Virus record (IMG/VR): IMGVR_UViG_3300013132_005385
Span: 1-64,000 of that record
Source of the DNA: a virus
Strand: one strand, 5' to 3'
Length of the DNA stretch: 64,000 bases
The translations under genes were made by a program, and so were the position numbers. Below the pieces are notes generated by a model. It did no database searches, was not told the DNA's origin, and was given only the letters and a program-made list of their open reading frames with translations. Shown in pieces: positions 19,505-55,083 of the stretch (within the stretch, counting starts at the first letter, position 1; every line of letters starts with the position of its first letter).

Positions 19505-21034
19505 TTATTCTTCGTTAATTCCGTCTAGAATGTCGGGATCCGATGCAAGACCAGCATTCAATGACCATTCTTTTTTTCCAAGTACTAATGTTTGATATAT
19601 TCCCTCGCTTTTTCTATAATTTATTTCGATTCCCAAAACAACATAATTTCCAGAGAGAAAGAGATTATTTTTTCTCGACTCCGAATCCTTCATAGAATTT
19701 GCAACCGGATCTTTACTAAAAGAATTTTTAGAGTCCGCAGTGACAGTGGAACTTCCCTCGTGAACTATGTTTACCACAATATTTTGTCCTCTATATATGA
19801 AAGGAGTCCATGCTCTGTTTTTTATCTTCAATAGCATTTTATAATTATCATTCTTATTCAGAATGTTTTGAACCATTGCCTGTTGGATGTTTTCATGAGC
19901 ATTTTCGTGGTAAACAGTACCAATGTATGTTTTTTTGATTTCCTCCTTGTAAATGTCTTCACCCAATCTTCCTTTGTTTATAGTTGCTCTTGCACCCAAT
20001 CTTTTATTTGTTATGCTTTCTATTGGATAGGTAACAAATTTATTTTTAGGCTTATCAGATTCAAGCTTAGAATCATAAAACTGTATATTTTGAAAGTATC
20101 CAAGGTCATTGTTAATTCTTCCCGCATTATGTTCCACAGAGAAAGCGGTAATAAATGTTGGGTATTTTTTAAAATTATTGGAATTAGAAAACATCAGGGG
20201 AAAGTCTCCTTCAAATGGTTTAGTTCCGCCCATAATAGATTTATTTTCATCTACCCCATAGGGAAGCTTTAAAGTCTCCATCTCGTTTTTATCATCGAAT
20301 TGCTTTCTCATATTGACAAAGTTCAGATTATAATATTGATCTATCCAGCAGTCGAAATAATCCTCGTCAGAAAGCCAAGAAGCATTAGATACATTTTTTA
20401 TAAATGAATAGTAGTCAAGGTTGGGGGAAATCCAAGTCATCTGGTCTGATGTTTTCTTCTCGTTACATGCAAATCCTAACCCCAGATCATTAGATATTTG
20501 TAATAAAGCATCGTATGAAGAACCGTTTATAGCCTTACAGATATGCTTGTATATTTTGGGAATTCTCGTTTCTCCCCTAATAGTAAAACTTATATATTTT
20601 CCAGTTGACCCGTCACTATCATTTCCTCCCAAATTACTAGAAAAGGTAGAAATTACCTCGGTAACTATAAAGTCCATTCTGATTGGCTTATATTCCTCTC
20701 CTAGTGCTCTTATATACAGCGAAATTATATCTCCGTCTTTGGGATATGATGTATAAATAAATCTTTCATCCAACGTCTGAAATCTAAATATAATAGTGGG
20801 TAAAAAAGTGCTTAGATCAAGAGTAAATGTTTGTATTCCGCTAACAAAAATATTATTTATTTTAATCAGCGGTTGATCCAATCCAGATGAGTTTTTCTGT
20901 GTGTTATTGGAAGCAAGATCTTGTTCCCCCTGATCCCCTTCCCCTTTGGATGTGTTGACTGTGGAGAGTTCATCCAATATTATTTCAGGCTTGGTGATTT
21001 GCAGTATGGTCTTATTTAGATTTATGTCCGCCAT
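19505..21034 (-). CDS. Baseplate hub protein (gp27-like), putative
   Basis: SSYDALLQISNDLGLGF, WIDQYYNLNFVN and SGNYVVLGIEINY (hub-like GxYxV); sits between gp53-like and gp5-like genes. Confidence 0.55.
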   Translation of the reverse strand: MADINLNKTILQITKPEIILDELSTVNTSKGEGDQGEQDLASNNTQKNSSGLDQPLIKINNIFVSGIQTFTLDLSTFLPTIIFRFQTLDERFIYTSYPKDGDIISLYIRALGEEYKPIRMDFIVTEVISTFSSNLGGNDSDGSTGKYISFTIRGETRIPKIYKHICKAINGSSYDALLQISNDLGLGFACNEKKTSDQMTWISPNLDYYSFIKNVSNASWLSDEDYFDCWIDQYYNLNFVNMRKQFDDKNEMETLKLPYGVDENKSIMGGTKPFEGDFPLMFSNSNNFKKYPTFITAFSVEHNAGRINNDLGYFQNIQFYDSKLESDKPKNKFVTYPIESITNKRLGARATINKGRLGEDIYKEEIKKTYIGTVYHENAHENIQQAMVQNILNKNDNYKMLLKIKNRAWTPFIYRGQNIVVNIVHEGSSTVTADSKNSFSKDPVANSMKDSESRKNNLFLSGNYVVLGIEINYRKSEGIYQTLVLGKKEWSLNAGLASDPDILDGINEE

Positions 21035-25173: not shown

Positions 25174-25420
25174 TATCTTCTATTATTTTAATTTCAGTGA
25201 ATCCGTCATTGGAATGGTAGCTAAGGTGGTCCTCGAGATCCTTCTCAATAATCCAGTGCTCCTCTTTTTTCTCTTTACCCTTGCCCTTTGGTATTATTCT
25301 TTCCCATATAATTATGTTATCCATAATCGGGTCAGGATGTCTATAAAATCTGTGATATGATTTCATAGATGTTCCTGGGGCTCTAACCTCTATAATTTGT
25401 CCATATTGCAACTTTTCCAT
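25133..25420 (-). CDS. Hypothetical protein
   Basis: 95 aa, first gene after a putative promoter. Confidence 0.55.
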   Translation of the reverse strand: MEKLQYGQIIEVRAPGTSMKSYHRFYRHPDPIMDNIIIWERIIPKGKGKEKKEEHWIIEKDLEDHLSYHSNDGFTEIKIIEDNDKMDKKSSKKKQ

Positions 25421-25430
25421 TTTACTCTAT

Positions 25431-25461
25431 TTTATAGGGCAAATATATGGGATTATTTCAA
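25431..25461 (-). promoter_or_regulatory. Putative promoter TTGAAA-N19-TATAAA (also contains TATATTTG)
   Basis: Read directly; TAnnTTTG is the Bacteroidota -7 consensus. Confidence 0.45.
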
Positions 25462-30837: not shown

Positions 30838-30843
30838 AATTTA

Positions 30844-31500: not shown

Positions 31501-31504
31501 ATTT

Positions 31505-32263: not shown

Positions 32264-32264
32264 A

Positions 32265-35293: not shown

Positions 35294-35918
35294 TAATGTT
35301 TAATTTGTTAAAATTTAAGCTTCTAGAACTATTTTTATTAATTACCACTCTCATCTGGACATCTTTATCGGGAATTCTTGATATTCCATTCATAATAATA
35401 GATCCATCCGTATAGTCTATATACCTCTCCCCGCTACCAAGGATCTGCGCGGAAATTTTTCCAGCATATTTAGGCATGATCTCATACTTTAGAACGTCAT
35501 GATCGAAATCTATTTCTCCTCCTCTAATTTTACTAGAACACACATCGCCCCAATCTTTTAGAAATTCCAAACACTTGCCATTATACTTGAATCCCAATGG
35601 TGATGCCTTTATTCCATTTATTTCACCTGTGTGAGAGGCAAAAAGAATATCAGAGTCCCACTTTTTTAGATTATTGGGAGCTGAGAAAATTTGTGTATCA
35701 ACATCTATCCAAACAACGTCTCTATTAAACTCCATGATTTTTTCAAGTATGTATAGGGGCTTATAAAGAGTGTTCTTCCAGTATGCACCTAAATCCTTTA
35801 CATTTTCAATATGAATATTTAAACCTAATGATTCACATGATTTTTTTAGTGATTCTGATGCTGTCTTATAATATTGGTTCCCAGTATAATAAGAGATGCA
35901 AATAGCATTATTCTCCAT
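35277..35918 (-). CDS. Nucleotide-diphospho-sugar transferase-like glycosyltransferase
   Basis: SYYT, YKPLYI, VVWIDVD, DFDHD. Confidence 0.7.
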   Translation of the reverse strand: MENNAICISYYTGNQYYKTASESLKKSCESLGLNIHIENVKDLGAYWKNTLYKPLYILEKIMEFNRDVVWIDVDTQIFSAPNNLKKWDSDILFASHTGEINGIKASPLGFKYNGKCLEFLKDWGDVCSSKIRGGEIDFDHDVLKYEIMPKYAGKISAQILGSGERYIDYTDGSIIMNGISRIPDKDVQMRVVINKNSSRSLNFNKLNINDYGF

Positions 35919-36165
35919 CGATAATAGTTTTTAAATATTCATCCAAGCTCATCTCAGCTCCCATGAATAGAACTCTATGTAGCATTTCTCCCCTGTCCAT
36001 CATTTCGGGTGTAGTGACATCAATTAGTCTTGGAAAAGCTGATATATCTATAAGATATTGATTTATATCAGACAAAATTGATTTTCTGGTATCATCATTA
36101 TTAGTCTCGAAGGCATAACCACTTAGTATGTCATTGATGTCCTGATAAATTTTAAATTTTTCCAT
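35908..36165 (-). CDS. Small protein resembling a tail-sheath C-terminal domain
   Basis: FETNNDDTRKSILSDINQYL...TTPEMMDRG resembles sheath FEPNxxxTRxxI...YL...NTPExID.G. Confidence 0.45.
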   Translation of the reverse strand: MEKFKIYQDINDILSGYAFETNNDDTRKSILSDINQYLIDISAFPRLIDVTTPEMMDRGEMLHRVLFMGAEMSLDEYLKTIIDGE

Positions 36166-36180
36166 TATATTGGTTTTTTA

Positions 36181-36912
36181 TTATAGTCCTAATCTTCTGA
36201 AAAGATCCCCGCAAATTTCCCTATTGTTTGAAAGGGGTCTGGGAATATGACAGTCAATATAATCATATGGATTATAATCACCCTTCGGCCAGATAGCCTT
36301 ATCCAGTCTCCTAGTAGCATATTTTTCTTCGATCCAGCCCCTTTCAAGATGTTTGATTTGTATACCCGGTTTAATTCTGGATTGGTTATAAAAAAACTTT
36401 TGATCCGTACCAAACCTGATATTCATTCTCATTAATCTCCTGAGAAAAACCTTATGATCCGAATCACTAAGATCCAGCAAATCAGTAAAACTCCGTGGAT
36501 CACCAGCGAGATAACACATGGGGTACTGTGGATTAGTTCTGTACCATCTATATTGAATAACATCAGAGCTGTATGACACTATACCCCTATCTCCTATCTG
36601 GCTCGCACCATTTTCATAATACTCCCGAGATATAGGAAGCATATCCATATCTGAAATGATAAAAGGTGCATCTAATATTCTTGCACCCCAAAATCTTATG
36701 CACTGAGCTTGTTGGGCAATATTCCATTCTGGGATCGATTCCAGATAAATTGTTCTACCATATTCCGTCACATTTTGGGAAGGACCTTGGGAATCAATAT
36801 AAATTAGAACTGGTTCTATTCCAAGCTTCTGCCACATAGCTGCCACATAGGGCCAAAAATCCAGATACTCGGGATTAGCATTAGAACTCACTACGGCGTA
36901 CTTAATCTTCAT
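36181..36912 (-). CDS. Putative glycosyltransferase
   Basis: YLDFWP, IISDMDMLP (DxD), FGTDQ, YIDCHIPRP; within glycan island. Confidence 0.6.
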   Translation of the reverse strand: MKIKYAVVSSNANPEYLDFWPYVAAMWQKLGIEPVLIYIDSQGPSQNVTEYGRTIYLESIPEWNIAQQAQCIRFWGARILDAPFIISDMDMLPISREYYENGASQIGDRGIVSYSSDVIQYRWYRTNPQYPMCYLAGDPRSFTDLLDLSDSDHKVFLRRLMRMNIRFGTDQKFFYNQSRIKPGIQIKHLERGWIEEKYATRRLDKAIWPKGDYNPYDYIDCHIPRPLSNNREICGDLFRRLGL

Positions 36913-37523
36913 CTACGGATTATATTTCTGGCAGGTCTTTTATGAACGTTACGGCTCTCCTGAAAGTGTTCTATGATAGGTTTAAGCCCAGGGTACATAT
37001 TTCGTGTGTGATCGAAGATATAAGTGTACTCCGGAGGAAGATTACAATAAACTAGATCTGGATTCTCCCGAACAGCAGTTTGCATGTGTTTTTGCTCCCA
37101 TGTTTCGGGCTTAGATCTCTCGGCGGGTATTTTTGAGTTGATCTCTATCCACCTTTTTACCAGTGACACAGTCTTAAGATTGTTTCTTAAAAAAATTGTC
37201 CCTGATAATGCTTCGTCCTTTCTCCATCTAAAATCTTCCGTCCTATATGCTATATCACAATCTAGAGAATTAAAAAGATCTGGAAAGCTTCTAAAGGCAG
37301 CGTCAACATCCACATAGACTAAATTTTGATCTAGCTTCTCGAGACACTCCAGAATGAAATGTGCTTTATAATGTGTGTTCTTTTCCCAGCTTCCAAGGTC
37401 TCCTATGGGTTTAATGTAATGCGGAATTGAAAAGTTTTGGAGAGATTCCCGTAGTCTACCAGCTAAACTTTGGTAGTTTGAGTTTTGGGTGTAATAAGCT
37501 ATAACTAAAAATTGGGGGCTCAC
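36909..37523 (-). CDS. Nucleotide-diphospho-sugar transferase-like glycosyltransferase
   Basis: AYYT, WEKNTHYKAHFI, VYVDVDA, LPPEY, IEHFQESR; GTG start. Confidence 0.75.
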   Translation of the reverse strand: MSPQFLVIAYYTQNSNYQSLAGRLRESLQNFSIPHYIKPIGDLGSWEKNTHYKAHFILECLEKLDQNLVYVDVDAAFRSFPDLFNSLDCDIAYRTEDFRWRKDEALSGTIFLRNNLKTVSLVKRWIEINSKIPAERSKPETWEQKHMQTAVRENPDLVYCNLPPEYTYIFDHTRNMYPGLKPIIEHFQESRNVHKRPARNIIRR

Positions 37524-37677: not shown

Positions 37678-38406
37678 ATGAAAATACTAAAGCCTTATTG
37701 GTTTCTAGAGAAGCCGGTCGATAAAGAACACAAATATTATGTGTTAATGGCTTATTTGCAATCCATTGAAAAGGACTTCTCCAATGGAGAATATGTTAAA
37801 CAGCTAACTAATGTACTTAGAATTCAAAAGGATCTTTGGAGCTTTAAGAACAAGGGTGTGCTATCAGTGAAATCAAATTCACATTTAACCGAAAGGGAAT
37901 TGGAAAAAACCCACGATCTCATAGATGATTTTTTACTTTCAGATGAAAGAGATGAAATAATAGAGGAGTCATTATCCACTATAGAAAAGTTTCTAGGAAA
38001 ACATGACTCAGTAATTAGAGAATATGATCAAATGGTAGAGGTAACTCATTCAGGATCTATAAATCAGACATGGGATAGGGGATTTCTCATTATCAGAAAA
38101 AACCTGGAGAGTATGCTTAGAATATTTTCTTGGAGTTTTTCTATTATTAAGATAGACGGGAATGAAAGCGTAGCCCTATTAATGACCGAGCTTCTTGATC
38201 CTGTGTGTGGATTTACCGAGGATGACAGAGAAGTTAAGAAGTTTTTAATACAGAATTTAAAATCTTCTATAATTAGTCCCAATGATGCTATTCTTTTTGG
38301 AAAAATCACTGAAGAGCTAGAACTGGATCTTGGTGTGGATCTATCCAAAGAAAAAGCTGTTGATATAATAGTGAAAAACTATAAGAAATCAATCGATCTC
38401 CTTTAG
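37678..38406 (+). CDS. Hypothetical protein
   Basis: 242 aa; TATATATA at 37648-37655 upstream. Confidence 0.65.
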   Translation: MKILKPYWFLEKPVDKEHKYYVLMAYLQSIEKDFSNGEYVKQLTNVLRIQKDLWSFKNKGVLSVKSNSHLTERELEKTHDLIDDFLLSDERDEIIEESLSTIEKFLGKHDSVIREYDQMVEVTHSGSINQTWDRGFLIIRKNLESMLRIFSWSFSIIKIDGNESVALLMTELLDPVCGFTEDDREVKKFLIQNLKSSIISPNDAILFGKITEELELDLGVDLSKEKAVDIIVKNYKKSIDLL

Positions 38407-38931
38407 CAGTAGGAATTTTTCTAAATTTTCCCCCTCAATACCGAAGCTCCCTGGATTGAACTGATCAATCTTAAAGATTAGACTTTCTTCTTCCCCTCCC
38501 GCTTCTGTTGTCACAACCTCTATCTTAGTTTTCTTTCTGTTTATGTAAAAGTCGCACGATTTACCATCCGGCGAAATGTGGTCTCTAAGAAATAAAAAAG
38601 ATCCGCTAGGCATTTCTATCAATTCTGGAGCTCCCCCCGTTTCTATTACTTTTTCCACCTTAGATATAAATTCTTTTAGTGCTGTTGAATCTAGATCCCT
38701 TATCGAAGAAGCACCAAACGATTCTGCATATTTACTTATTATCTGAGAGATCATTTTCTTTATTTGTGGGGTTTTATCTCCATAAAAATGAATGTCATTT
38801 ATCAGATCATCTATAAAATATCCATCCCTAAGATCTTTCTTAGCAAATTTGAATGATATGGACTCCTTAAATTTTGACCCTGCACTGGAGCTTTCCAAAA
38901 TAAATTTTGAGAAGTTGGAGATTCTATTCAT
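38389..38931 (-). CDS. Hypothetical protein with capsid-targeting-like N-terminus
   Basis: MNRISNFSKFILES. Confidence 0.6.
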   Translation of the reverse strand: MNRISNFSKFILESSSAGSKFKESISFKFAKKDLRDGYFIDDLINDIHFYGDKTPQIKKMISQIISKYAESFGASSIRDLDSTALKEFISKVEKVIETGGAPELIEMPSGSFLFLRDHISPDGKSCDFYINRKKTKIEVVTTEAGGEEESLIFKIDQFNPGSFGIEGENLEKFLLLKEID

Positions 38932-39340
38932 GATTTGATTTCTTTTTTTGTAATTTTTGCGCCTCGGTATATGAAGAAAATCTAAAATCTTGAATATTCA
39001 GCGGCATTTCTATTTGTTCTAATAAATCTGGACCAAATTCAGGCCTATCCAAATTAGATATTCTGATTAAATTGGGATCAAATGCTGGCTCATAGGGCTT
39101 ACATTCCACTAATATTTCATCCTCTAGAGTTGAAAAAAATAGGCCATTTTTTAGAATAAAAAGATAATCTCCCAGATTTGCTGAAATTTTATTCCATACG
39201 GGTCTAAGAATTTTATATCCTCTATAAACAAAAGTTGTATCCTCATCACCTGTTCTTATCCACACATCAGTTTTGTGTGTGAATTTGTAATAGGATGGAG
39301 ATTCATAGGATTCCCCCGATAGCGATGAAAAATTACTCAT
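38924..39340 (-). CDS. Hypothetical protein
   Basis: 138 aa; AATATATA 5 nt before ATG. Confidence 0.6.
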   Translation of the reverse strand: MSNFSSLSGESYESPSYYKFTHKTDVWIRTGDEDTTFVYRGYKILRPVWNKISANLGDYLFILKNGLFFSTLEDEILVECKPYEPAFDPNLIRISNLDRPEFGPDLLEQIEMPLNIQDFRFSSYTEAQKLQKKKSNHE

Positions 39341-39345
39341 TAGGA

Positions 39346-39385
39346 TATATATTCAATGACAGAATCTGTTAAATAGATATATATA
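39346..39385. promoter_or_regulatory. Divergent pair of putative late promoters (AATATATA on -, GATATATA on +)
   Basis: 39346-39353 (-) and 39376-39383 (+) in a 52-bp divergent gap. Confidence 0.6.
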
Positions 39386-39392
39386 AAGACAA

Positions 39393-40115
39393 ATGATAGA
39401 AATAATCAAATTTGAGGAATTTAGATCAAAAAACGCTCCTATAGACAGGGAGGTTTTTGAACATCAGGTCGAGTTCATAGAAAGCGAGATCAGAAGAATG
39501 CGCAGGGAGGGATTAAGTGCAGATGAAATTAACGAAAACGTATTTTCCGATATTCTTTCCGGACTAGGAGGGGGTTTTTCCGATATTGTTAAGGATTACG
39601 TTATAGATTGGGCAGCTCAAAAAATGGGAGTCCAAACCCATGACGAAGCTGGTCAACCAACCATATTTTATCAGATGATACGTAATATCATAGAAAAAAT
39701 GGAATGGACCAAAATAGGATCGTATTTCGGAAAAGGATCATGTTCTCATTGGGCTAAAGCTATCGTTTTGGGTCTTGCTGATACCATAGAAGAAAAAGCC
39801 ATAGCTGCTATTCTTGGTGCTTTAGGTATGCAAATAGATGAAAGGGGGGGATTAGCTACAACACTAGCATTGTCTATAAGACAAGGATTACAGAACGCGG
39901 TTAATAACACAGATTTCATGAAGAATATAGAAAAAATGATATCAGGTAAATTGTGTGGAGCTAATTTTGGTGACATACTAAGTGGTATAACCAGATCTGA
40001 TCAAGATAAAGTGACTGACCAGATTCAGAGAGCTGCAGAAGATGACCCAAATATACTTAAAAAAGTAGCAACATCCGGGATAATGGATGTATTAACAAAA
40101 ACAGTTGCACCATGA
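39393..40115 (+). CDS. Putative internal virion protein
   Basis: MIEIIKFEEF N-terminus, INE site followed by an amphipathic helix, late motif upstream. Confidence 0.55.
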   Translation: MIEIIKFEEFRSKNAPIDREVFEHQVEFIESEIRRMRREGLSADEINENVFSDILSGLGGGFSDIVKDYVIDWAAQKMGVQTHDEAGQPTIFYQMIRNIIEKMEWTKIGSYFGKGSCSHWAKAIVLGLADTIEEKAIAAILGALGMQIDERGGLATTLALSIRQGLQNAVNNTDFMKNIEKMISGKLCGANFGDILSGITRSDQDKVTDQIQRAAEDDPNILKKVATSGIMDVLTKTVAP

Positions 40116-40363
40116 ACGTAAAAAACGTAAAAAAAAGAGAAATTCTAGATTACAAGCAATTCATTAAGGTTGCTTCGGATCCATTCAATAAACAAAACTT
40201 GAGCAAGGAGGACAGAACGGGTTTTAATAAAATTAAACCGGAAAAGCCATATGCTTATGTTGGATTTCAAGACCCTATATTTAATAAGGTATCAAAAATA
40301 GATTATCCAGGGAAAGGAGCTACAGAAAGCGGGATCACTGCTGAATTTGGAACTAGCGAATAA
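40112..40363 (+). CDS. Small hypothetical protein (CTS-like ILDYKQFI)
   Basis: ATGA overlap with previous gene. Confidence 0.55.
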   Translation: MNVKNVKKREILDYKQFIKVASDPFNKQNLSKEDRTGFNKIKPEKPYAYVGFQDPIFNKVSKIDYPGKGATESGITAEFGTSE

Positions 40364-40379
40364 AAAATAAAAAATAAAA

Positions 40380-40979
40380 ATGGGAACTAAAATATTATCA
40401 TGGGAGGAATTCAGTAAGGAAAAAAAACAGCCTGATGTACCTCTTTTTAGCGACGATAACATGGCTAAAATACCTACTGAAGAAATCGATGGAATTGAAG
40501 AGGAGGAGGACGAGGATGCCATAGATTCTGAAGAAGTAAAGACGTTAAAGAATCAAACCGATGTCCAATCGGACGAGGACGATACTGAGGAAGAAGATAC
40601 TGAGGAAGAAGATACTGAGGAAGAAGATACTGAAGAGGAAGACGAGGACGATACTGAGGAGGAAGATACTGAGGAAGAAGATACTGAAGAGGAAGACGAG
40701 GACGATACTGAGGAAGAAGACGATACTGAGGAAGAAGACGAGGACGATACTGAGGAAGAAGATACTGAGGAAGAAGACGAGGACGATACTGAGGAAGAAG
40801 ATACTGAGGAAGAAGATACTGAAGAGGAAGACGAGGACGATACTGAGGAAGAAGATACTGAAGAGGAAGACGAGGACGATACTGAGGAAGAAGACGAGGA
40901 CGACCAGACCGAAGATGAAGATAGCGCGGAATCTACGGAGGAGCCAGTGGTAATAAGATTTGATACCTTTTTAGATTAA
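40380..40979 (+). CDS. Highly acidic low-complexity protein
   Basis: MGTKILSWEEF N-terminus, long (DTEEE/DEDD)n tract, C-terminal VVIRFDTFLD. Confidence 0.75.
   Translation: MGTKILSWEEFSKEKKQPDVPLFSDDNMAKIPTEEIDGIEEEEDEDAIDSEEVKTLKNQTDVQSDEDDTEEEDTEEEDTEEEDTEEEDEDDTEEEDTEEEDTEEEDEDDTEEEDDTEEEDEDDTEEEDTEEEDEDDTEEEDTEEEDTEEEDEDDTEEEDTEEEDEDDTEEEDEDDQTEDEDSAESTEEPVVIRFDTFLD
40570..40920 (+). repeat. Coding tandem repeat GATACTGAGGAAGAA with GACGAGGAC inserts
   Basis: Read directly in sequence. Confidence 0.95.
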
Positions 40980-40999
40980 AAAAATAAATATCGGCAGGA

Positions 41000-41024
41000 A
41001 AAAGCCTACCCTCGGTAGGCTTTT
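41000..41024 (+). terminator. Rho-independent terminator
   Basis: AAAAGCCTACC-CTC-GGTAGGCTTTT followed by ATTTTG. Confidence 0.8.
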
Positions 41025-41048
41025 ATTTTGTTTGCGAATATATACATT

Positions 41049-42533
41049 ATGCCTATAGAACAGTTATCGGATTTTAAATTTAAGGGAATAAAGGGTAAGG
41101 AAAAAATGCCAACCGTTATAATACTAACGGGTAGACTTGGCAAAAATGGAAAAGCCCCAACTACCGATAAGATAGCAAAAATTTGCGAGTCTAAAGGAGC
41201 TCCTTGTATAATAGTGAATTCTGAAAAGGGAGTGGTTGAAAAAACACAGAGCGGAATAGTTTTGGTTGGAAATAAGAACGAGAAGCTCAGAGAAATATAT
41301 CTAGATAACACTGTGGTTCTAGCCAGAAGAACAGCCATAAACAATAATGCCTCCAAGACATTTTTTAAAAAATTGGAAGAATTAGGACTTCCGTGCGTTA
41401 ATACATACGATGCGGTCAATCTTTGTGAGGATAAATTACAAACCACAAGGGCATTACAAAGAAACAAGATCCCTGTACCCAAAACAGCCTTGGTTTCTGG
41501 AGAAGATGATATTGACAAATCAGTTAAGGAGGTAGGAGGAAAATTCCCGATTGTTTGTAAATTTATCTCCGGTACTAAAGGTATTGGAGTATTCAGCGTT
41601 GATTCAAGACCTAGCTTAGTTTCTACCCTTCAAGCAATGTGGAATTTATCTCCATCAACGGAGATAGTTATGCAAGAGAAGATAGAAGCTGATTATGACC
41701 TTAGAATACATGTTTTAGGAACAAGTGATGGAATGGGAGGCAGAGAATATAAAGTTATTGCCGCTATGAAAAGATTAAAAATAGAGGGTGATTTTAGAAC
41801 TAATTTTTCATTAGGCGGAGAAATAGAAGCTGTTGAGCTTGACAAAAAAACAAAAAAGATAGCAATAGAATCAGCTAAGGCAGTCGGCTGTCTTTGGGCA
41901 GGAGTTGATATCATTATAGATAAAAATACTGGAGATCCATATGTTCTAGAAGTTAACTCTTCCCCTGGAACGGATGGCATAGAAAAAGCCACGGGGATGA
42001 ATATTAGCCAAATTATTGCCGACTTTTTGGCTAATAAAGATAACTGGCTAAAACCTAAAAAAATTAGCGGATTTAGAGAAATAGTAACGATCCCGGGTGT
42101 TGGAAGCTTTGTAGCAAAACTAGACACCGGAAACGGAGCAGCGTCATGTTCCTTGCATGCTGATACTGTTGATGAAGAAGATGGATACCTAATATGGAGC
42201 ATGGGGGGAGAAACATATAGAAATAAAATACTAGGAACCTCAAGAGCTGAAGTTGGAAAAAATCTTCATATTAGGCCAATCATATCTTTAGATGTTGAAT
42301 TTAATGGTGCCAATTATAGAAAAATAAGATTCTCTTTGGTCGATAGAACAGAAAAGAGTACCCCTGTACTATTAAACAGAGATTTTATGTCTCTCGCAGG
42401 AATAGTAGTTGATCCCTCAGAAGATTTTATATTAACAGATCGTCCCGATGGATATTCGCCAAAAGACGCCAAGGGTAATCCAAAAGCAGGAGTTGTTATG
42501 GGAGACGACTCAGATGAGGATAATGACAATTAA
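41049..42533 (+). CDS. rimK: RimK-family ATP-grasp ligase fused to a C-terminal RimB-like retropepsin protease
   Basis: CEDKLQT, IPVPKT, FPIVCK..GTKGIGV, DLRIHV, GDFRTNFSLGG, AGVDI, LEVNSSPG; C-terminal AKLDTGN...SLHA...RP...FSLVDR...PVLLNRDF. Start moved to ATG 41049 after the late motif (41037-41044). Confidence 0.9.
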   Translation: MPIEQLSDFKFKGIKGKEKMPTVIILTGRLGKNGKAPTTDKIAKICESKGAPCIIVNSEKGVVEKTQSGIVLVGNKNEKLREIYLDNTVVLARRTAINNNASKTFFKKLEELGLPCVNTYDAVNLCEDKLQTTRALQRNKIPVPKTALVSGEDDIDKSVKEVGGKFPIVCKFISGTKGIGVFSVDSRPSLVSTLQAMWNLSPSTEIVMQEKIEADYDLRIHVLGTSDGMGGREYKVIAAMKRLKIEGDFRTNFSLGGEIEAVELDKKTKKIAIESAKAVGCLWAGVDIIIDKNTGDPYVLEVNSSPGTDGIEKATGMNISQIIADFLANKDNWLKPKKISGFREIVTIPGVGSFVAKLDTGNGAASCSLHADTVDEEDGYLIWSMGGETYRNKILGTSRAEVGKNLHIRPIISLDVEFNGANYRKIRFSLVDRTEKSTPVLLNRDFMSLAGIVVDPSEDFILTDRPDGYSPKDAKGNPKAGVVMGDDSDEDNDN

Positions 42534-43933
42534 GAAAGGAAGATATCCACTGCTTTTTTTCTATAGTCCATAGGATCTTCCACTATTTTAGAATTTTTAA
42601 GGGCAAGTTTTTTTCTATCAATAACACAATCGGGCACCAATCCTCTGAAAGTGTCTTTAAGAATCTTTTTATTTTTTCTTTCTTCAAAAGGCAGAGACAT
42701 TGCAAATCTCACAATGTCCAGATTTAAAAAAGGATTTCTAAGCTCTAGAGTGTGCGCCATTGAAAGTTTATCCAGTCTTGGAAGATGATAATATGTCAGT
42801 TCGTGAAATATATCGGATAATTGGGAGTCATACTCATTTATCCTTCTATATCCTCCAAACAGTTCGTCTGCACCGTCACCTGAAATGACTATTCTAGTCT
42901 TTGATCCTTTTTTAATAGCATCAAATAGATGATATTGGGGAATAACGCTACCAAGATCTACTGGACTTTCATTCCATTTCCGATAGACCTCTTTCAAAAA
43001 GTCTAAATTATTTGCATCATCTGTGTCCATTGAATATTTTAGCCTATGTGATGATATTTCCCAGTAATTTTCACACGCTTTTATGTGCTCCTCGTCTTCT
43101 CCATTTTCTATTGAATAGAATTGAACGTCTGCACCTAGCTTGAGAAGCAATCCACCAATTATAGATGAATCCAGGCCTCCAGACAGAAGAAGAGAAGTTG
43201 GATAGTTTTTAGAGAGAAGTCTTGCCCTTGTTGCAGACTCTAATTTCTCCCAAAGCCAGTCCATTTTAGCTTCGTAGTTTTCAAACTCTATGTCGAAGGC
43301 GCTAAAATTGTAATATAGCGCGCTTTTATGGGTAAATGATGGATTATCCAAGTTCCAATAAACAAATGTGTTATTGGGCAGTTTAGCGATGTTTTTGAAG
43401 GGGGTTTCATCCGATACCAAGTAGCCACTTTTTAAAACTCCGCTGATGAAGGCCCCATTAGAAATTTCATCCCCTTTTAATAGGCCTTTTATCTCTGAGC
43501 AGACTGATCCGTCGCTACTTTTATAAAGGGATTTTTTACCTAGCGGATCGGTGAAGGCATAGACATCTTTAGTTTTTGTGTCAACCAAAACAATCGCCCA
43601 AAATCCGTCCCACGAACAGATATGTGGCTTAAATATTGCCTCAAACATGGGTAATCCCCCAAAATGAAAATTTGAAAACAACTTTTGTAAATATTCAGTG
43701 TCCGAATCATATCCCGAAGGGTAATTAAATATCTCCCCATTAAAAAGCATATACCTGTTTTCCCCGATTGGAACTGGCTGAGACCATCCATCTCCATCTA
43801 GAGTCTGTATAGGAAGTCTATGATGACACATGGTTATTCCATTTTCCCTGATAGTCTTATGCTCAATACCTCTATGGGAGATAGATTTTATTTGGCTCTC
43901 GGAAAGGTCTTTTCCTATTAAGATCCCGCACAT
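42530..43933 (-). CDS. asnB: Asparagine synthetase B-like glutamine amidotransferase
   Basis: N-terminal MCGI, HRG, HHRLPI, FNGEIFNY, DPLGKKSLY, LLSGGLDSS, SGDGADELFGGY, RLDKLSMAHTLELRNPFL. Confidence 0.9.
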   Translation of the reverse strand: MCGILIGKDLSESQIKSISHRGIEHKTIRENGITMCHHRLPIQTLDGDGWSQPVPIGENRYMLFNGEIFNYPSGYDSDTEYLQKLFSNFHFGGLPMFEAIFKPHICSWDGFWAIVLVDTKTKDVYAFTDPLGKKSLYKSSDGSVCSEIKGLLKGDEISNGAFISGVLKSGYLVSDETPFKNIAKLPNNTFVYWNLDNPSFTHKSALYYNFSAFDIEFENYEAKMDWLWEKLESATRARLLSKNYPTSLLLSGGLDSSIIGGLLLKLGADVQFYSIENGEDEEHIKACENYWEISSHRLKYSMDTDDANNLDFLKEVYRKWNESPVDLGSVIPQYHLFDAIKKGSKTRIVISGDGADELFGGYRRINEYDSQLSDIFHELTYYHLPRLDKLSMAHTLELRNPFLNLDIVRFAMSLPFEERKNKKILKDTFRGLVPDCVIDRKKLALKNSKIVEDPMDYRKKAVDIFLS

Positions 43934-44481
43934 ATTAATTTATCAATTAGTTTTAGAAAATTTTCTTCGGATTGCGGGTCGAAGTGATTGCTGAATTGGT
44001 GTACTCTGATTCCCGCATCCGACATATAATCGGAAACCTTTTCAAATATTGAAAGCTCCTTTAGCCTTTCCTCGTTGTTTTCTAAATGATCCCAATGATC
44101 TTTATTTTTTCTAAATTTCATCGGAACATCCGATTTGATCAATATGATATCCACATCGTCAAATAATCCGCTAGAGATCATAAAATCTATTTCTGAGAAA
44201 ACATGGGCGTAGCTTACTCTTTCCTGATATATTCCCCATACCTCGTTGGTTAATATACCTCGATCTACTATCAGATTGTTTCCGAGGAATCCCTTAGAAT
44301 AGAGCTGATGCAGCATTATTTCCTTTCCCAGACCTAAAGAATGTGTTGTTTTTCCGTTAGTGGGAAGATTAAGCCCGCCATAAACTCCAGTAAAATCAAA
44401 CTTGAATTTTGACTGTGTAATTTTATCGGAAAGATGGGTTTTTCCTGAATTTCTTGGTCCTTCTAAAAGAATAAGGGGCAT
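43918..44481 (-). CDS. P-loop nucleotide (dNMP/thymidylate-like) kinase
   Basis: ILLEGPRNSGKT and IVDRG motifs. Confidence 0.7.
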   Translation of the reverse strand: MPLILLEGPRNSGKTHLSDKITQSKFKFDFTGVYGGLNLPTNGKTTHSLGLGKEIMLHQLYSKGFLGNNLIVDRGILTNEVWGIYQERVSYAHVFSEIDFMISSGLFDDVDIILIKSDVPMKFRKNKDHWDHLENNEERLKELSIFEKVSDYMSDAGIRVHQFSNHFDPQSEENFLKLIDKLICAGS

Positions 44482-44535
44482 AATCCTATTTTATGATTAT
44501 ACCCCAAATTTAATAAAAATTCCGAATTTATTATC

Positions 44536-46734
44536 TTATAATGATTGGGAAAACTTTTTAATTACTTTTTTGATCTCTTCTGTGTTTGTCCATTCATCAG
44601 ATAGATCATCAAAAAGATTGCTTGACTTTCCTTTAGAGTTTAAAAAACTTTTATATCCGCTGGCGAGTAGCTTAATCTCTTCTGGCTTCCATTTTAAAAG
44701 CTCGTTATATAGCTTTTTATCTCTAAAGCTTGAACCATAAATATCCCTGTAAAGAGCGGTTATTTTTTTAGCATACTTATCGGGAGTTATTTTAGAAGCT
44801 AAGACTGAAAGCTTATCTGTTGATCCATCATTGCCTTTAAAAGAGTCATTTTCAGTGTCATAATATCCCATAACTTTGTCCCATAATCTGAGAGCCACCC
44901 CATTTTCATAGAATCTCAATCCTGGACAAGTTGCTATGGCCATATTTGTTCCTCCGTTATAGCCTTCGTTCTTTTTAACACCCTTTATTTTAACCAATTC
45001 CTGAACCTTTTTCTCTCTGTTGAAATCGCCTTTAACTTTGTTTACTGCGTCCTCAACGGCTTTTTTAATATCATCCGATGATATTTTTTTATCCGTTCCT
45101 GACTCTTTAGCAGCGGACTTTACTTCACCTTTGTTGACCTCTTCTGTTTTTCCTCTTGATCCCCCAGATTCTACAGTTTTCTTGAAAGCATCTCCATTAA
45201 AAGCTTCTAGGATTCCTTTATTTAACCTTTCAAAATCTCTAAAAGTAAGGACAGGAGATTTAGATTCCGTGAGTTTTTCGGTCTCTATTTTGTTTACTAA
45301 TTCTGCAGTTATGTCGGAAGATGAGTCTTTTAAATCAAATCCCGCCTTTAACCCTTGTATAATTCCAGCAGTAGACGATCCAAAAAGTCCATCCGCTCCA
45401 TATTTAGAAAATTTCTTCCAAATATCTGTTTCTGTTACCGCCTTTACATTTTTAAATTTGTTCAATATCAATTTTTGAAAAGCCTCAACATCTGGATTTT
45501 TCTTTCCGCCGGATTCTGATCTTTTAATTGGTTTTTTAAGATCTATTTCGGATTTAGTCTCCTTCTTTTCTCCCTCTCCTTCTTTCTTGGATGCTTCTGC
45601 TGCTTTTAGGATCTCCTCTGTTGCTGCTCCCCTTTCCTCATCGCCCTTATTTTTTAATTCCACTGCCTTGGAAAGAATCTCAGCCACTTTGGAATACTTA
45701 AGACTTTTAAGATAATTTATTCTTTCGTCTTTTATTTTGGAATCAAAATTGGATGAGCTCTCTTCAAGTTCCGATTTAATCTCAGTGTAAAGATCATTAT
45801 ATTTAGAGATAAGATCATCATCTTTGATCTTTCTTCCGTCTTCTTTTCTAGTTGTTTTTGCATCATTCATAAGCTCATTAGCTCTGTTAAGAAGCTGCTT
45901 GAATTTCTCCTCGTATTGACCTGGAGTTTTTAACTCCGGAGATGCTGAACTGTAGGTAGCTGCCTGATCTATTTTTGATTGAATTTGCGAGATCATGGTC
46001 TTACAGTTGTTTATAAAAGAAACCATATTTCCTTTCTTAGAAAATCTCTCCGCCCTTTTGCTCTCCAACGATTCAATAATAAATAATGACTCTTTTACCT
46101 CGCCTTTATTGGAAGAAAGAATCTTGATGGTTTCATCTAAAATGGATGCTATCTTATCACCTAAGAACTTCTTGGTTGATTCCGAGTCAAATTTATCGGG
46201 ATCTTGTTTTTTGAGCTCGTCTAGTGCCTGCTTATAAAGATCCATAGAAAGTTCATAGTTCTTAAAAGCCTGTTCAAATCCCTTACCCCCCGGATCCTTT
46301 ATTGCTCCCGCAAGAAAGTCTGTAAAAGCATTAGAGATCTTATCCATCACCGATTTTGGTGCTGAATCTGACTTAAGTCCCTGTAAAGCTGCATTAAATT
46401 TTGAACTAAACTCATCTTTAAATTTACCAGCAGGAAAAGAAACAACTGTAGATGTCATTATTGCATATGCACCAAAGATGATTTCGCTTAGAATTTTCTC
46501 CAAATCACTAATTTTCTTCTCGGCGGGTGCGGTAGAAGTTTTGGTTGTCTCTTCCTTTTTAGCCGTGGAGTCTCCTGGTTTTGCTGCTGTTTCTGGCTTA
46601 GCAGGATCAGCAGGCTTTTTCTCTGCCCCCGCTGCTTCCTGTTCATTCAAAGATGAATTCAAAGTCTGATATCTTTGAGCCTTTTCAAGAAGCTGATTAA
46701 ATAGCGGGTTTTGTATAAGATCTTGTTTTCTCAT
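44536..46734 (-). CDS. Large putative internal/ejection protein with peptidoglycan-binding-like domain
   Basis: DVEAFQK...GADGLFGSSTAG resembles PG_binding_1; multiple LNE/IIE/LTE/ILE sites. Confidence 0.55.
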   Translation of the reverse strand: MRKQDLIQNPLFNQLLEKAQRYQTLNSSLNEQEAAGAEKKPADPAKPETAAKPGDSTAKKEETTKTSTAPAEKKISDLEKILSEIIFGAYAIMTSTVVSFPAGKFKDEFSSKFNAALQGLKSDSAPKSVMDKISNAFTDFLAGAIKDPGGKGFEQAFKNYELSMDLYKQALDELKKQDPDKFDSESTKKFLGDKIASILDETIKILSSNKGEVKESLFIIESLESKRAERFSKKGNMVSFINNCKTMISQIQSKIDQAATYSSASPELKTPGQYEEKFKQLLNRANELMNDAKTTRKEDGRKIKDDDLISKYNDLYTEIKSELEESSSNFDSKIKDERINYLKSLKYSKVAEILSKAVELKNKGDEERGAATEEILKAAEASKKEGEGEKKETKSEIDLKKPIKRSESGGKKNPDVEAFQKLILNKFKNVKAVTETDIWKKFSKYGADGLFGSSTAGIIQGLKAGFDLKDSSSDITAELVNKIETEKLTESKSPVLTFRDFERLNKGILEAFNGDAFKKTVESGGSRGKTEEVNKGEVKSAAKESGTDKKISSDDIKKAVEDAVNKVKGDFNREKKVQELVKIKGVKKNEGYNGGTNMAIATCPGLRFYENGVALRLWDKVMGYYDTENDSFKGNDGSTDKLSVLASKITPDKYAKKITALYRDIYGSSFRDKKLYNELLKWKPEEIKLLASGYKSFLNSKGKSSNLFDDLSDEWTNTEEIKKVIKKFSQSL

Positions 46735-46745
46735 TTTTTTATTTT

Positions 46746-46997
46746 TTATTTTTTTTCCAGGTCCTCCATTTTTTTAACGGCCACAGATTTTTTTTGGAGT
46801 GCAGCTACTTTCTTTTGTAGTTCCATAGCTTGTTGACGCAAAGACTCTGATTGGGTTATTTCTTTCTTATTGACTCTGTCTTTAAGATAAGAAACAGCAA
46901 GATCGGCTTTAGATATTTCCTTATCTATATTTTGGATCTCGAGGTCTATCGATGATTCCTCGTTCAGTAAAAAATCATTAATTCTCTTGAGCTGCAT
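46746..46997 (-). CDS. Small coiled-coil putative internal virion protein
   Basis: MQLKRINDFLLNEE N-terminus. Confidence 0.55.
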   Translation of the reverse strand: MQLKRINDFLLNEESSIDLEIQNIDKEISKADLAVSYLKDRVNKKEITQSESLRQQAMELQKKVAALQKKSVAVKKMEDLEKK

Positions 46998-47817
46998 ACT
47001 TTCTTTTACTTACTTTTTCTACCCTATATATCTTATCCCTAGTATCTTTGTGCTCCTTTCTATATGAGGATTCTATTTCTCTAATCTCCTTCCTAATGAC
47101 AGATTCAGCATACACATCATCTTCCTTTCTAGCTCTTGTCAATTGTTTTCTAAGGTTTAGAGTTGCATTGTCCATTAGCTTTTGAAGAGACCAGGTGTAT
47201 TTCTTTAGTGATCTCTCAAGGGAATCTAGTTCCCTGGTGGAGATGCTTTGTATGTGTGATTCAAATTCTCCGGTAGACATAGATAAAACTCTTTCAACCT
47301 CAGGATCAACATCTATAGGGGATGAATCAGGTAAGGAGTAAATAGATGAATCATCCTTCATTTTTTTATCCGCTATTGCGGTCATTCTTTCTAGGTCAGA
47401 TGTCAATTTTCTAAGCGTTTCATCCGATTCATATCCCTTTGATTTTTTTAGGGTCTCTTCGGCAGCTTCTATTTCTATTTTTGCCAATTTAGATTGGAAG
47501 TGACTTAGAAGATCCGATTTGTTTCCTATGATTTCATATGCTTCTTTTTTCAGATTCTCCGCCTCTCTATTCTTTGCTAGCTGATAATTACTAAGAGATT
47601 TTTTAAGCATCTCCACTTCAAAAGATGATTCTTCTCCCGATTTGTACAGGTCGAAAATTTCTTTTTTTATCTTACCTGACTCCTTAACAAAATCCATCCT
47701 GGATTCTTTAATTTTATTAAGTATAGAGTCCAATTTTGATTTTTTACCCATAATAGATGAGAACAATCCGCTTAGAATTCCCTCACTTACAAACTCTTCA
47801 AATCTGTATATCTTCAT
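46978..47817 (-). CDS. Coiled-coil putative internal virion protein
   Basis: MKIYRFEEFVSE/GILSGLFSSIMG. Confidence 0.6.
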   Translation of the reverse strand: MKIYRFEEFVSEGILSGLFSSIMGKKSKLDSILNKIKESRMDFVKESGKIKKEIFDLYKSGEESSFEVEMLKKSLSNYQLAKNREAENLKKEAYEIIGNKSDLLSHFQSKLAKIEIEAAEETLKKSKGYESDETLRKLTSDLERMTAIADKKMKDDSSIYSLPDSSPIDVDPEVERVLSMSTGEFESHIQSISTRELDSLERSLKKYTWSLQKLMDNATLNLRKQLTRARKEDDVYAESVIRKEIREIESSYRKEHKDTRDKIYRVEKVSKRKYAAQEN

Positions 47818-52692: not shown

Positions 52693-55083
52693 TTATTCTT
52701 CTGTTTCTTCTACTTCTCCGGATACCCCGTCAGTTAATTCTTCCATGGCCTCCGATAATTTTTCCAGATCTTCTTCCTTAAGATCCTTAATATTTTCTTC
52801 TACCTTAGAATTATTTTTATTAAGCATAGCCAATCCTTGTTTACAAGCATCCAGGGCGTTATCAAAATCTGCTGGACTGCCAGTTAAAGGATCTTTAGTT
52901 TTAAATCTAGGAAGAGCGGGAATTTCGTCCATGTCTGTTACGATATCTTTGAAGAATCCTGCTATACCTTCTTCGCCAACTATTCCCTGTATACTCGATT
53001 CTATCGATTCACCAGCATAGGTTTGAAAATTTTTCTTAATCTGACTCCATGCCGAAACTGCCTTACCGTCTCCATTGTCGGTATAAGTACCTCTACAAAG
53101 AACTAATGTAGACATTATTGCAAGGAGATCCTGTGATGATACCGTTCCTTTTAAACTGTTGGATAATCCCCTAGCCATAGCATTAACAGCAATATTTTCA
53201 ATATAGCCATTAAAGACTAAAACAGTAACCGGCTGTCTATCTGATCCTACCCATTTAGCTATTGTAGATCCACCTACAGCGCCAGAAGCGAGAGTAATAG
53301 CTCCAGCAGTAGTTCCTAAACTACCCGCTGCTCCAACTGCTCCTGCGAGACCGCTTGCCCCTAGAGAAGATGCTCCGAGTAGGGTTCCTCCAACAGGTAT
53401 AGCAATGCCAGCAGCTCCAGCAGTGACAATTACTGCACCAACTAGAATTCCAGCAACAATTGCTCCTTTAGAGAAATCCCCCCACCATTCACTCCAGCTT
53501 TCATCGTAATACACTGTATATGCACCATTTCTAACTGGCTTATATCCTTTCCAGATTATTTCCTCATTTTTCTTTTCCCCTTCCCCGCCTTCGTCTTTTT
53601 TAGCTTTGATACACTCGAGATCTATTTGTTCAGTTTCTATTGATTTATTCAAACACTCTTCAGGAATTTTATATCCTATAGTTTTGCTTTTATCCTCTTC
53701 CGCTACCAGTTTATATGACGGATTTTTTGAAATAGTTTGCGCAAATGAATCAAATCTTAGCACCGGAACTCCCTCGTTGAACTCAGCTTCAAATATTCTA
53801 TCTTTTAAATACTTATCAAATCCGATGGATTCTTTTGCTGCGCTGTCTATTGTTTTTATCTTTCTTTCGATGTCTTTTTCTTCCAGAGCCATAATGGAAT
53901 CATATCCGTCTTTGGTTAGATCTCCAACTAGACTGATGTCTTTGTTTTTATTGAGATATCCAAGAATTATATTTACACATTTGGATGTTCCCTTTCCATA
54001 TTTACCATCGGCTTTTCCTCTTGATTCTAGGAAAGTAGCAATTGCAGGAAATAACTCCATTATTTTAGTTTGAAGCTTTTGTACTTCTTCACACTTTGCT
54101 GATCCCACTCTAACAGGAAAAGTACATTTACCTGTCGGTGTTGGTGTTGGTGTTGGTTTTGTTTCGTCTTTAACTTCCGGTTTTGGAACCACAACAACAG
54201 GAATTGGCTGAGGTGTATAAGAGATCTCTGCTTTAGTTAGCAATAAATCTTTTATTCTTCTGTACTCTTTTTTCTGTCTGATTATTTCGTTAATTAATGA
54301 ATCAATCTTAACCTTATAATCTTTTCTTTTATATTGTGTTCCTCCTGCTGTAACTATCTTAAGTCCTTTCCTGTCTACCAGTTGAAGATTCTTGGCTTGA
54401 ACTAGTAGATCGTTTGCAGTTTTTTCAAATTTCTGAACCTGAGGATCCTCAGCCATTAATTTTGTGTATTTGTCTCTAGTGATTTCACCAGTGAATGCTA
54501 ATGCAGCATCCATCGCTTCTTTTGATCTATCAAAAGCAGGGCCTTCAAATTGACCAGACTCAACATTTGATTCCTCGCCTGTTTTACGATCCTGTTCGAG
54601 TATAGATGATTCTTTTATATTTGATATCTTGGTCTTCTTTAGATCGTTAGCCCTATTTTGAAGGTCAGCCTTAAAATTTCTGACCATTTCACCTATAGTT
54701 TGGCTAACTTTAGAAAATGCCTTTTCATCTTTCAGTATTGGCTCTAGAGGAATTAAATTTGATTCTATGAATTTTACGTTCTGCTCCGCATAATTTTTAT
54801 CGATCTTTCCTGATACAGCCAAGCTTTTTGCTGATTGCATTACGGAATTTTTAAACGATGCAAAATCCTTGGAAGATACAATTTTACTACCAACAAAAGA
54901 TTCAAATCCTTCCGGAGTTTTATATGCTTCCTCTTTTGAATCTAATACCATGGTGAATAGAGTACTAAGTGATGCAGTTAAATTCACTGCGGGATCCACT
55001 TTAGTGTCCTTCTCATAAAGTTTAGATGTTTTGAGCATGCTCTCAAATACTGGATTAGCCCCCTTGTAAATGTTTTGATTCAT
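52693..55083 (-). CDS. Large putative ejection protein with PG-binding-like domain and Gly/Ala-rich membrane segment
   Basis: GSAKCEEVQKLQ...ADGKYGKGT; hydrophobic GAIVAGILVGAVIVTAGAAGIAIPVGG; PT linker; N-terminus similar to 44536..46734. Confidence 0.6.
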   Translation of the reverse strand: MNQNIYKGANPVFESMLKTSKLYEKDTKVDPAVNLTASLSTLFTMVLDSKEEAYKTPEGFESFVGSKIVSSKDFASFKNSVMQSAKSLAVSGKIDKNYAEQNVKFIESNLIPLEPILKDEKAFSKVSQTIGEMVRNFKADLQNRANDLKKTKISNIKESSILEQDRKTGEESNVESGQFEGPAFDRSKEAMDAALAFTGEITRDKYTKLMAEDPQVQKFEKTANDLLVQAKNLQLVDRKGLKIVTAGGTQYKRKDYKVKIDSLINEIIRQKKEYRRIKDLLLTKAEISYTPQPIPVVVVPKPEVKDETKPTPTPTPTGKCTFPVRVGSAKCEEVQKLQTKIMELFPAIATFLESRGKADGKYGKGTSKCVNIILGYLNKNKDISLVGDLTKDGYDSIMALEEKDIERKIKTIDSAAKESIGFDKYLKDRIFEAEFNEGVPVLRFDSFAQTISKNPSYKLVAEEDKSKTIGYKIPEECLNKSIETEQIDLECIKAKKDEGGEGEKKNEEIIWKGYKPVRNGAYTVYYDESWSEWWGDFSKGAIVAGILVGAVIVTAGAAGIAIPVGGTLLGASSLGASGLAGAVGAAGSLGTTAGAITLASGAVGGSTIAKWVGSDRQPVTVLVFNGYIENIAVNAMARGLSNSLKGTVSSQDLLAIMSTLVLCRGTYTDNGDGKAVSAWSQIKKNFQTYAGESIESSIQGIVGEEGIAGFFKDIVTDMDEIPALPRFKTKDPLTGSPADFDNALDACKQGLAMLNKNNSKVEENIKDLKEEDLEKLSEAMEELTDGVSGEVEETEE

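Follow-up and report, generated by a model that had tools for sequence, protein, structure and literature searches.

What would a phage gain from joining a glutamate ligase to a glutamate-chain protease in one polypeptide, and why would the gene lie next to one for a protein made largely of aspartate and glutamate? The question is raised by positions 40,380 to 42,533 of IMG/VR virus record IMGVR_UViG_3300013132_005385. The window analysed here is the first 64 kb (positions 1 to 64,000) of this 119,741-base record of a large T4-like phage (CheckV completeness 39%). Nearly all genes of the window lie on the minus strand, and both genes of interest belong to a short plus-strand cassette at 39393-42533. 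A sequence-only reading of the region had proposed that the phage reversibly glutamylates host ribosomes or its own virion proteins by means of a RimK-RimB fusion, and that the acidic neighbour is a candidate substrate of the protease. We find that the open reading frame (ORF) at 41049-42533 encodes a single polypeptide in which a RimK-family ATP-grasp alpha-L-glutamate ligase is joined to a retropepsin-like peptidase of the RimB/RloA family. The reading that we prefer, at slightly less than even odds (roughly 0.45), is that the fusion is produced late, is probably encapsidated, both synthesises and trims poly-alpha-glutamate, and has a functional tie to the acidic protein.

The fusion gene has two possible starts. 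Read from a TTG codon, the ORF (41028..42533, plus strand) encodes 501 residues; the ATG at 41049 is the likely start and gives the 494-residue form that is also held in the protein database (P0001). Residues 1-16 are predicted to be disordered in an AlphaFold 2 (AF2) model of the fusion, which was built on 26 homologues and has a predicted local distance difference test (pLDDT) score of 85.8. The ligase half is readily assigned. Residues 134-332 match Pfam RimK PF08443 (E 6.1e-39, 134 bits against a cut-off of 21); on the genome this RimK-type ATP-grasp domain occupies 41427..42023 of the plus strand, with a profile score of 136.6 bits. The half also passes the NCBIfam model TIGR00768 rimK_fam (158.6 bits, cut-off 143.4). 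Pseudomonas and E. coli RimK are its top sequence matches in the PDB, and a Foldseek comparison of the AF2 model with the RimK structures 7qys, 7qyr, 5zct and 4iwx gave template modelling scores, TM(target), of 0.82-0.88. The RimK motif DFRTN..LGG and residues D287, E301 and N303 align with PDB RimK, are invariant in all 26 aligned homologues (alignment A1), and have what we take to be catalytic and metal-binding roles.

The protease half is formed by the last ~160 residues. Pfam PF05618 reaches 26.5 bits against a gathering score of 27, with profile positions 79-135 alone aligned; scanned on the genome, where the retropepsin-like peptidase domain occupies 42060..42470 (plus strand), the same profile gives 24.5 bits, or 31 when its in-frame neighbours are included. 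Modelled alone, the domain has a pLDDT of 86.9 (AF2), and Foldseek returns RloA2, Lpg0085 and RloA (9g59, 2pma and 9g58; TM(target) 0.72-0.79, E 5e-9 to 2e-7), followed by HIV-1 protease, with the RloA structures 9g59 and 9g58 as the best matches. The same three entries are found by sequence in the PDB, through alignments that include the AKLDTG stretch. This stretch lies within VAKLDTGNGA, coded at 42111-42140 (AKLDTGNG at 42114-42137; catalytic D-T-G at 42123-42131). K357, D359-T-G-N-G, R409 and R433 are invariant in the 26 homologues of alignment A1, D-T-G is invariant in alignment A3 as well, and DTGN occurs in 78 of 79 related loci. An alignment with 9g58 pairs K357, R409 and R433 with chain residues K26, R94 and R117. 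Allowing for a numbering offset of +20, we infer that K357, D359, R409 and R433 correspond to RloA K46, D48, R114 and R137, which contact octa-Glu in the model of the RloA authors and whose mutants are reported to cleave less (PMC12239564). On the strength of the domain and fold matches and the invariant residues, both halves are predicted to be active and the protease to be tuned to acidic chains. The fusion described by the sequence-only reading is therefore real, with catalytic residues kept in both halves according to profiles, folds and the 26-member alignment.

The same record holds a second, stand-alone PF05618 gene outside the window (G000:C1:108163-108666, minus strand; locus L004:1486-1989). 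It codes for 167 residues with the motif AKFDTGAKSSS and scores 33.8 bits against the cut-off of 27, so that the phage has a free RimB/RloA-like protease besides the fused one.

The acidic protein directly upstream is real too. It is encoded at 40380..40979 (plus strand) and has 199 residues, 62% of them Asp or Glu (76 Glu, 47 Asp and 24 Thr). Its middle is built of DTEEE-type repeats, which are encoded by tandem DNA repeats with periods of 15, 24, 39 and 54 nt (40581..40915, plus strand). The ends are not repetitive: KILSWEEF stands near the N terminus and VVIRFDTFLD at the C terminus. Relatives (alignment A2) keep the ends, as M..KILS[FW]EEF and VIRFD.F, around repeat cores that are wholly different, which argues that the acidic frame is a real coding frame. 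The protein matches no Pfam, NCBIfam or PHROG family.

Are the two genes linked beyond this one genome? We collected loci with an alignment-based scan of IMG/VR (a single-sequence query gave one locus). Protein clusters numbering 843 were found at E <= 1e-5, the best 120 of them mostly ~490 residues long and on contigs of up to 453 kb; at least 588 stretches code for a fusion relative, and 79 loci were kept. An acidic ORF stands no more than three genes from the fusion in 38 of the 79 loci, whereas none of the 879 more distant genes in the same loci is acidic by an equal criterion. This was a check that the sequence-only reading had itself named, and conserved linkage is what we found, in three arrangements. 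Thirteen of the 16 closest loci (54-89% identity) have the acidic ORF 60-115 nt upstream on the same strand. The remaining three, near-identical to one another, have it ~1.1 kb upstream on the opposite strand. Finally, 22 more distant loci (~40% identity) carry an acidic ORF of 93-182 residues that is convergent and two genes downstream; the end motif [RK]V[LM][SRK][FY]x[DE][FY] is present in 21 of these. The linkage between fusion and acidic ORF has been maintained through rearrangement and deep divergence.

From cultured phages, 31 records match the fusion. Both domains are covered in Pelagibacter phage Mosig (90% coverage) and in Yersinia phages YerA41 and GN1 (74%); the other 28 records match the ligase part only.

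Loci of the distant clade (for example L028, L041, L052 and L057) have a conserved ORF of 59-83 residues, ending in ...LIRRDLGK(T/S)..., between the fusion and the convergent acidic ORF. A chromosomal homologue was seen as well. A contig of a Flavobacteriales metagenome-assembled genome (MAG) codes for a 403-residue protein (L092:3470-4681, plus strand) that shares 47% identity with the window protein in the protease half, has a degenerate-looking ligase half, and is flanked by malonyl-CoA-ACP transacylase-like and polyprenyl synthetase-like ORFs (labelled by eye). Three matches in other Bacteroidota MAGs resemble it, and homologues of this type may hint at a host lineage or a domesticated copy. 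A candidate protease-first hybrid in a Desulfobacula MAG (L101) was ruled out: it is a stand-alone RimK-family gene in a different context.

Between the acidic gene and the fusion lies an intrinsic-terminator-like hairpin (41000..41034, plus strand; hairpin with an 11-bp stem and a 3-nt loop at 41000-41024, followed by a T-rich tail), equivalents of which are visible in close relatives. Beyond it is the heptamer ATATATA (41038..41044, plus strand; context GAATATATAC), 4 nt 5' of the ATG at 41049. This is consistent with the earlier suggestion that the fusion has a late motif of its own. No heptamer is more enriched than ATATATA upstream of this genome's genes (23 of 126 called genes, 12-fold over expectation). 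It is found ahead of the portal-position ORF, of the prohead protease and of ORFs of the tail/baseplate region as well as the fusion, and 45 of the 65 unique regions upstream of fusion homologues contain it or a close variant, typically GATATATA. For the T4 late promoter TATAAATA no enrichment was seen (7 observed, 9.15 expected). We regard ATATATA as a putative late-type promoter. What can be said plainly is that a terminator splits the two genes and that the fusion has its own copy of a promoter-like motif shared with virion genes.

What would such an enzyme make? The biochemistry of the separate proteins offers a guide. Pseudomonas RimK and RimB bind each other and jointly make and trim poly-alpha-Glu (PMC11957791, PMC7343187). 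RimB is described as a retropepsin-like endopeptidase whose cleavage requires at least 5-6 Glu in a row and which leaves Asp-rich or EEEDD tails uncut; it removes Glu from ribosomal protein S6, raises the ATPase activity of RimK about fourfold and, when present, prevents S6 glutamylation, and free poly-alpha-Glu of up to 28-36 residues was reported only with RimK and RimB both present (PMC11957791). RloA is said to need at least 8 Glu and to leave DDDDEEEDDD uncut (PMC12239564). By analogy, with the protease permanently attached, the phage enzyme would be an ATP-driven maker and trimmer of poly-alpha-L-glutamate, whose chains could be free or on a protein C terminus. Stable modification of S6 would be a less likely role.

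The phage protein resembles the Pseudomonas pair in its two families and in the retained DTG and active-site Arg/Lys. Unlike the pair, it is a single polypeptide, without a RimA or cyclic di-GMP (c-di-GMP) partner, and it differs from RimK itself in having ~27% identity and an N-terminal extension of roughly 25-30 residues. A natural fusion of the same two domains has been described, the RimBK hybrid (Desulfotalea psychrophila DP2392); by that account it has polyE protease activity without S6 glutamylation in vitro, occurs mostly in aquatic Flavobacteriales and Rhodobacterales, and has the protease at the N terminus (PMC11957791). In the phage fusion, by contrast, RimK (~25-335) precedes the protease (~340-480). 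Judged from the opposite domain order rather than from a tree, the two fusions are likely to have arisen independently.

We know of no ligase-protease fusion in the rlo system of Pseudomonas aeruginosa. The rlo operon nevertheless pairs a PF05618 protease, RloA, with an ATP-grasp protein, RloC, and shows polyE specificity; it differs in that RloA is secreted and disulfide-stapled and in that the operon includes the membrane protein RloB (PMC12239564). A further parallel is LysX/ArgX with LysW, in which a RimK-family ligase modifies a small acidic partner protein at its C-terminal Glu, and whose structures 3vpb and 3vpd match the fold of the phage ligase (TM(target) 0.85). Unlike in that system, the fusion scores 111 bits against a LysX cut-off of 276, the acidic neighbour is a long repeat protein without a Glu end, and lysine/arginine pathway genes are lacking. 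The cyanophage 'ribosomal protein S6 glutaminyl transferase' (S-RIM8, S-RIM12) is homologous in its ATP-grasp part, at 29-33% identity across 44-49% of the query. There the ligase part alone aligned and no protease part was matched, and a published passage on this gene discusses it solely as an auxiliary metabolic gene annotation.

Where and when would the enzyme act? The head genes are of T4 type, with Gp23 (PF07068, 140.9 bits) and a gp21-family prohead protease (PF03420, 36.9 bits against a cut-off of 27). The T4 internal proteins IPIII and IPII have the N terminus MKTYQEFIAE. A 10-residue tag of this kind directs T4 proteins to the prohead core and, it has been suggested, may let T4-like phages load varied proteins (PMC9026906; also PMC3012670, PMC10229621); residues 4 and 7 are assigned to targeting and residues 8 and 10 to processing (PMC9026906). 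A T4-like pattern, aromatic-x-x-aromatic-[ILVM]-x(1-2)-E within the first 25 residues, is present in 37 of 64 unique fusion homologues, compared with 67 of 1146 other N termini and 33 of 4695 internal windows (0.7%). The Mosig fusion has the N terminus MQVQPFKNYLEEA; fusion homologues of other clades start, for example, MKIIKSYEDFLNEAK or MKNRLAYFNEFVINEA, and many of their neighbours likewise. The YerA41 homologue, gp066, is annotated 'structural protein', a label that in this phage stands for detection in purified particles using liquid chromatography-tandem mass spectrometry (LC-MS/MS) (PMC7354516). Together, the promoter-like motif, the T4-type head genes, the tag-like N termini of homologues and the YerA41 annotation suggest late synthesis of the enzyme and, probably, its loading into the head. 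A head-loaded enzyme could act in the next host from DNA entry on.

The likeness to the T4 internal proteins (IPI-III, Alt) lies in the T4-type capsid protein and prohead protease and in the tags resembling the T4 capsid targeting sequence on many homologues and neighbours; by analogy it may extend to the idea of diverse enzymes that are loaded into the head and ejected. The differences are that the T4 proteins are basic, not acidic, and that the fusion in the window has no canonical tag.

Four small ORFs of the minus strand between the cassette and the capsid gene have T4 capsid-targeting-like starts: 38389-38931 (MNRISNFSKFILES), 46746-46997 (MQLKRINDFLLNEE), 46978-47817 (MKIYRFEEFVSEG) and 47817-48797 (MIIDSFDKFEAAE). 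They match no family and are candidate internal head or scaffold proteins.

How might the acidic protein take part? We speculate that it could belong to the same polyanion function, as a processed primer or acceptor, as a pseudo-substrate regulator, or as an encoded counterpart of polyglutamate. A role as the main substrate of the protease is improbable. Here we depart from the sequence-only reading: the acidic protein fits the RimB and RloA specificities poorly, its longest Glu run being 4. As encoded, it was ruled out as a direct C-terminal acceptor of RimK by the ends of its relatives, given below. A cut by the prohead protease that exposes an EE end was weakened as a candidate by inspection of the sequence, which has no [ILV]-x-E site ahead of the C-terminal motif in the window protein. 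Prediction of a complex between the fusion (A1) and the C-terminal 50 residues of the acidic protein (A2) scored 0.00, which speaks neither for nor against binding. Going by its sequence, the acidic protein is unlikely to accept glutamate directly or to be cut as a canonical substrate of the protease.

Several observations weigh against a packaged polyglutamate enzyme tied to its acidic neighbour. None of 35 unique acidic neighbour proteins ends in Glu, and 16 of the 35 have a Glu run of 5 or more, so that a direct enzyme-substrate tie would require extra processing or another specificity. The acceptor cannot be read from the sequence of the ligase, since every equivalog model falls far under its cut-off: 116.6 bits against 331 for the S6--L-glutamate ligase model NF007764, and likewise far under for the NCBIfam models of MptN, CofF and LysX. 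The loci are related to one another, with 64-65 unique sequences among the fusions and 35 among the acidic proteins, and the counts are not independent events; moreover, 41 of the 79 loci, and also Mosig and YerA41, have no acidic neighbour by the criterion used. Packaging has difficulties of its own. Fusions of the window clade lack the T4-like tag pattern, reading LSDFKFKG or LLEKFVFKG with no [ILV]-x-E site, and the acidic protein of the window matches the tag in part (W8, F11 and E14, with no I/L). A looser form of the pattern is weakly enriched in this genome (6 of 126 N termini, compared with 2.0% of internal windows). Finally, the particle proteome of YerA41 comprises 63 proteins, and a ribonucleotide reductase subunit is also annotated as being in the particle; particle association is thus no proof of specific packaging.

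A bolder version of the preferred reading can be imagined, which we hold to be unlikely. The capsid would be loaded with a polyglutamate factory (ligase plus protease) together with an encoded polyanion, and both would be ejected with the DNA. Chains would then be built at once, possibly primed on fragments of the acidic protein, and before phage gene expression they would serve as a DNA-like decoy, as a sink for cations or proteins, or to re-tail host proteins such as S6.

Could the two genes simply be neighbours? If they were merely co-located head cargo, the acidic protein would be an independent polyanion (a DNA mimic, an anti-defence decoy or a component of the scaffold core) with no biochemical link to the enzyme. 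The cassette adjoins the head module, and a similar end motif is found on the non-acidic minus-strand neighbours at 38389 (MNRISNFSKFILES) and 46978 (MKIYRFEEFVSEG). The terminator and the separate promoter-like motif between the two genes would suit this explanation too, as would the poor fit of the acidic proteins to known protease rules. We nevertheless find it doubtful. Within the 13-kb loci, acidic ORFs are found only near the fusion (38 near against 0 of 879 far), and the linkage outlasted at least two rearrangements while the fusion diverged to ~40% identity. Such a pattern would be difficult to account for if the genes had no functional tie.

More doubtful still is the idea that the sequence-only reading had put forward, a writer/eraser that reversibly polyglutamylates host S6 or EE-ended virion proteins and so reprograms translation. 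RimK is the closest family of the ligase half by both sequence and fold, PHROG 2599 and the cyanophage annotations call the ATP-grasp part a 'ribosomal protein S6 glutaminyl transferase', RimB does take Glu off S6 (PMC11957791), and delivery in the virion would allow immediate action on ribosomes. Two ORFs also end as had been quoted, in ...EVEETEE (52693..55083, the 796-residue head ORF) and ...GINEE (19505..21034). A homologue of the head ORF was found in four of five related records searched (a pattern search before had given none). The EE end is kept in two of the four, and it is absent in the other two, both of which still have the fusion. The claim that the phage also encodes S1 is overstated: the ORF at 9731-10858 has one S1/OB domain (PF00575, 37.6 bits), and it is not the multi-domain ribosomal protein S1. 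Against an S6 ligase there is, further, the low equivalog score. The biochemical reports point the same way. RimB prevents net S6 glutamylation and the RimBK hybrid lacks it in vitro (PMC11957791), so that, by analogy, a covalent fusion would not obviously be a ribosome writer/eraser.

The least probable alternative is that the ligase acts with the AsnB-like amidotransferase and P-loop protein encoded next to it on a small molecule (a metabolite that is cofactor-like or a peptide, or else a step in DNA or glycan modification): the RimK family includes MptN, CofF and LysX (matches of 97-132 bits), the AsnB-like and P-loop genes lie downstream in 16 of 16 close loci, there are weak matches to the N-acetylglutaminylglutamine amide (NAGGN) 'trio' models TIGR03103 and TIGR03104, YerA41 thymidine is heavily modified (PMC9023294) and a glycan-synthesis island is present at 24-37.5 kb, yet every small-molecule equivalog model is far under its cut-off, a peptidase domain with invariant polyE-contact residues is fused in every member, the AsnB neighbour is not kept in distant clades, and the YerA41 modification is described as oligosaccharide-like, not Glu-based (PMC9023294).

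Little work has been done in bacteria on protein polyglutamylation or free poly-alpha-glutamate, and our literature search for phage polyglutamylation returned annotation-level mentions of RimK only, in phage papers. The fusion family is large, shows strong constraint on its catalytic residues and has a tie to an unusual acidic protein. If delivered by the virion, the enzyme would open a new class of ejected effectors, and a bacterial virus would be putting a retropepsin-like protease to a new use. Cultured phages with the full fusion (Mosig and YerA41) make the question directly testable.

The remaining cassette genes and the flanking genes offer a few further clues. The first cassette gene (39393..40115, plus strand) has ATATATA motifs upstream and encodes a 240-residue protein with the N terminus MIEIIKFEEF. 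It has no Pfam, NCBIfam or PHROG match, and its sole return in an Atlas search was a viral 'hypothetical' cluster at 0.82, under the useful range. It is followed by a gene for an 83-residue protein (40112..40363, plus strand) that is kept directly 5' of the acidic gene in the close clade. The C-terminal residue of this small protein is Glu in 15 of 17 copies (the window and the 16 close loci), which makes it a possible RimK-type acceptor. The copies end in -TSE, -TE or -AE, with L009 and L011 as the exceptions.

Convergent with the fusion is a gene for an asparagine-synthase-like amidotransferase (42530..43933, minus strand; PF00733, E 1.5e-35; TIGR01536, 196 bits, under the cut-off of 267), the first downstream neighbour of the fusion in every one of the 16 close loci. 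The second conserved downstream gene of the close clade (43918..44481, minus strand) encodes a 187-residue P-loop-like protein (MPLILLEGPRNSGK...), labelled as such from sequence only. This protein, the 83-residue protein and a 732-residue Lys/Glu-rich ORF (44536-46734) match no Pfam, NCBIfam or PHROG family, and a megablast search of 38000-46000 against the phage collection gave no match. The Lys/Glu-rich ORF and the acidic gene have an A-rich leader in common (AATAAAAAATAAAA...; 46735-46760 and 40355-40379, respectively). The leader adjoins the start codon directly in both cases, and neither copy has a Shine-Dalgarno-like sequence.

Farther away, between the tail and head modules, lies the glycan/sugar biosynthesis island (24039-37523, minus strand). 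Its genes include a KdsA-like DAHP_synth_1 (172.9 bits), a SIS domain protein, a GDP-mannose 4,6-dehydratase (448 bits) and an epimerase/reductase, together with an FkbM methyltransferase, glycosyltransferases of families 2, 10 and 17 and a nucleotide-diphospho-sugar transferase.

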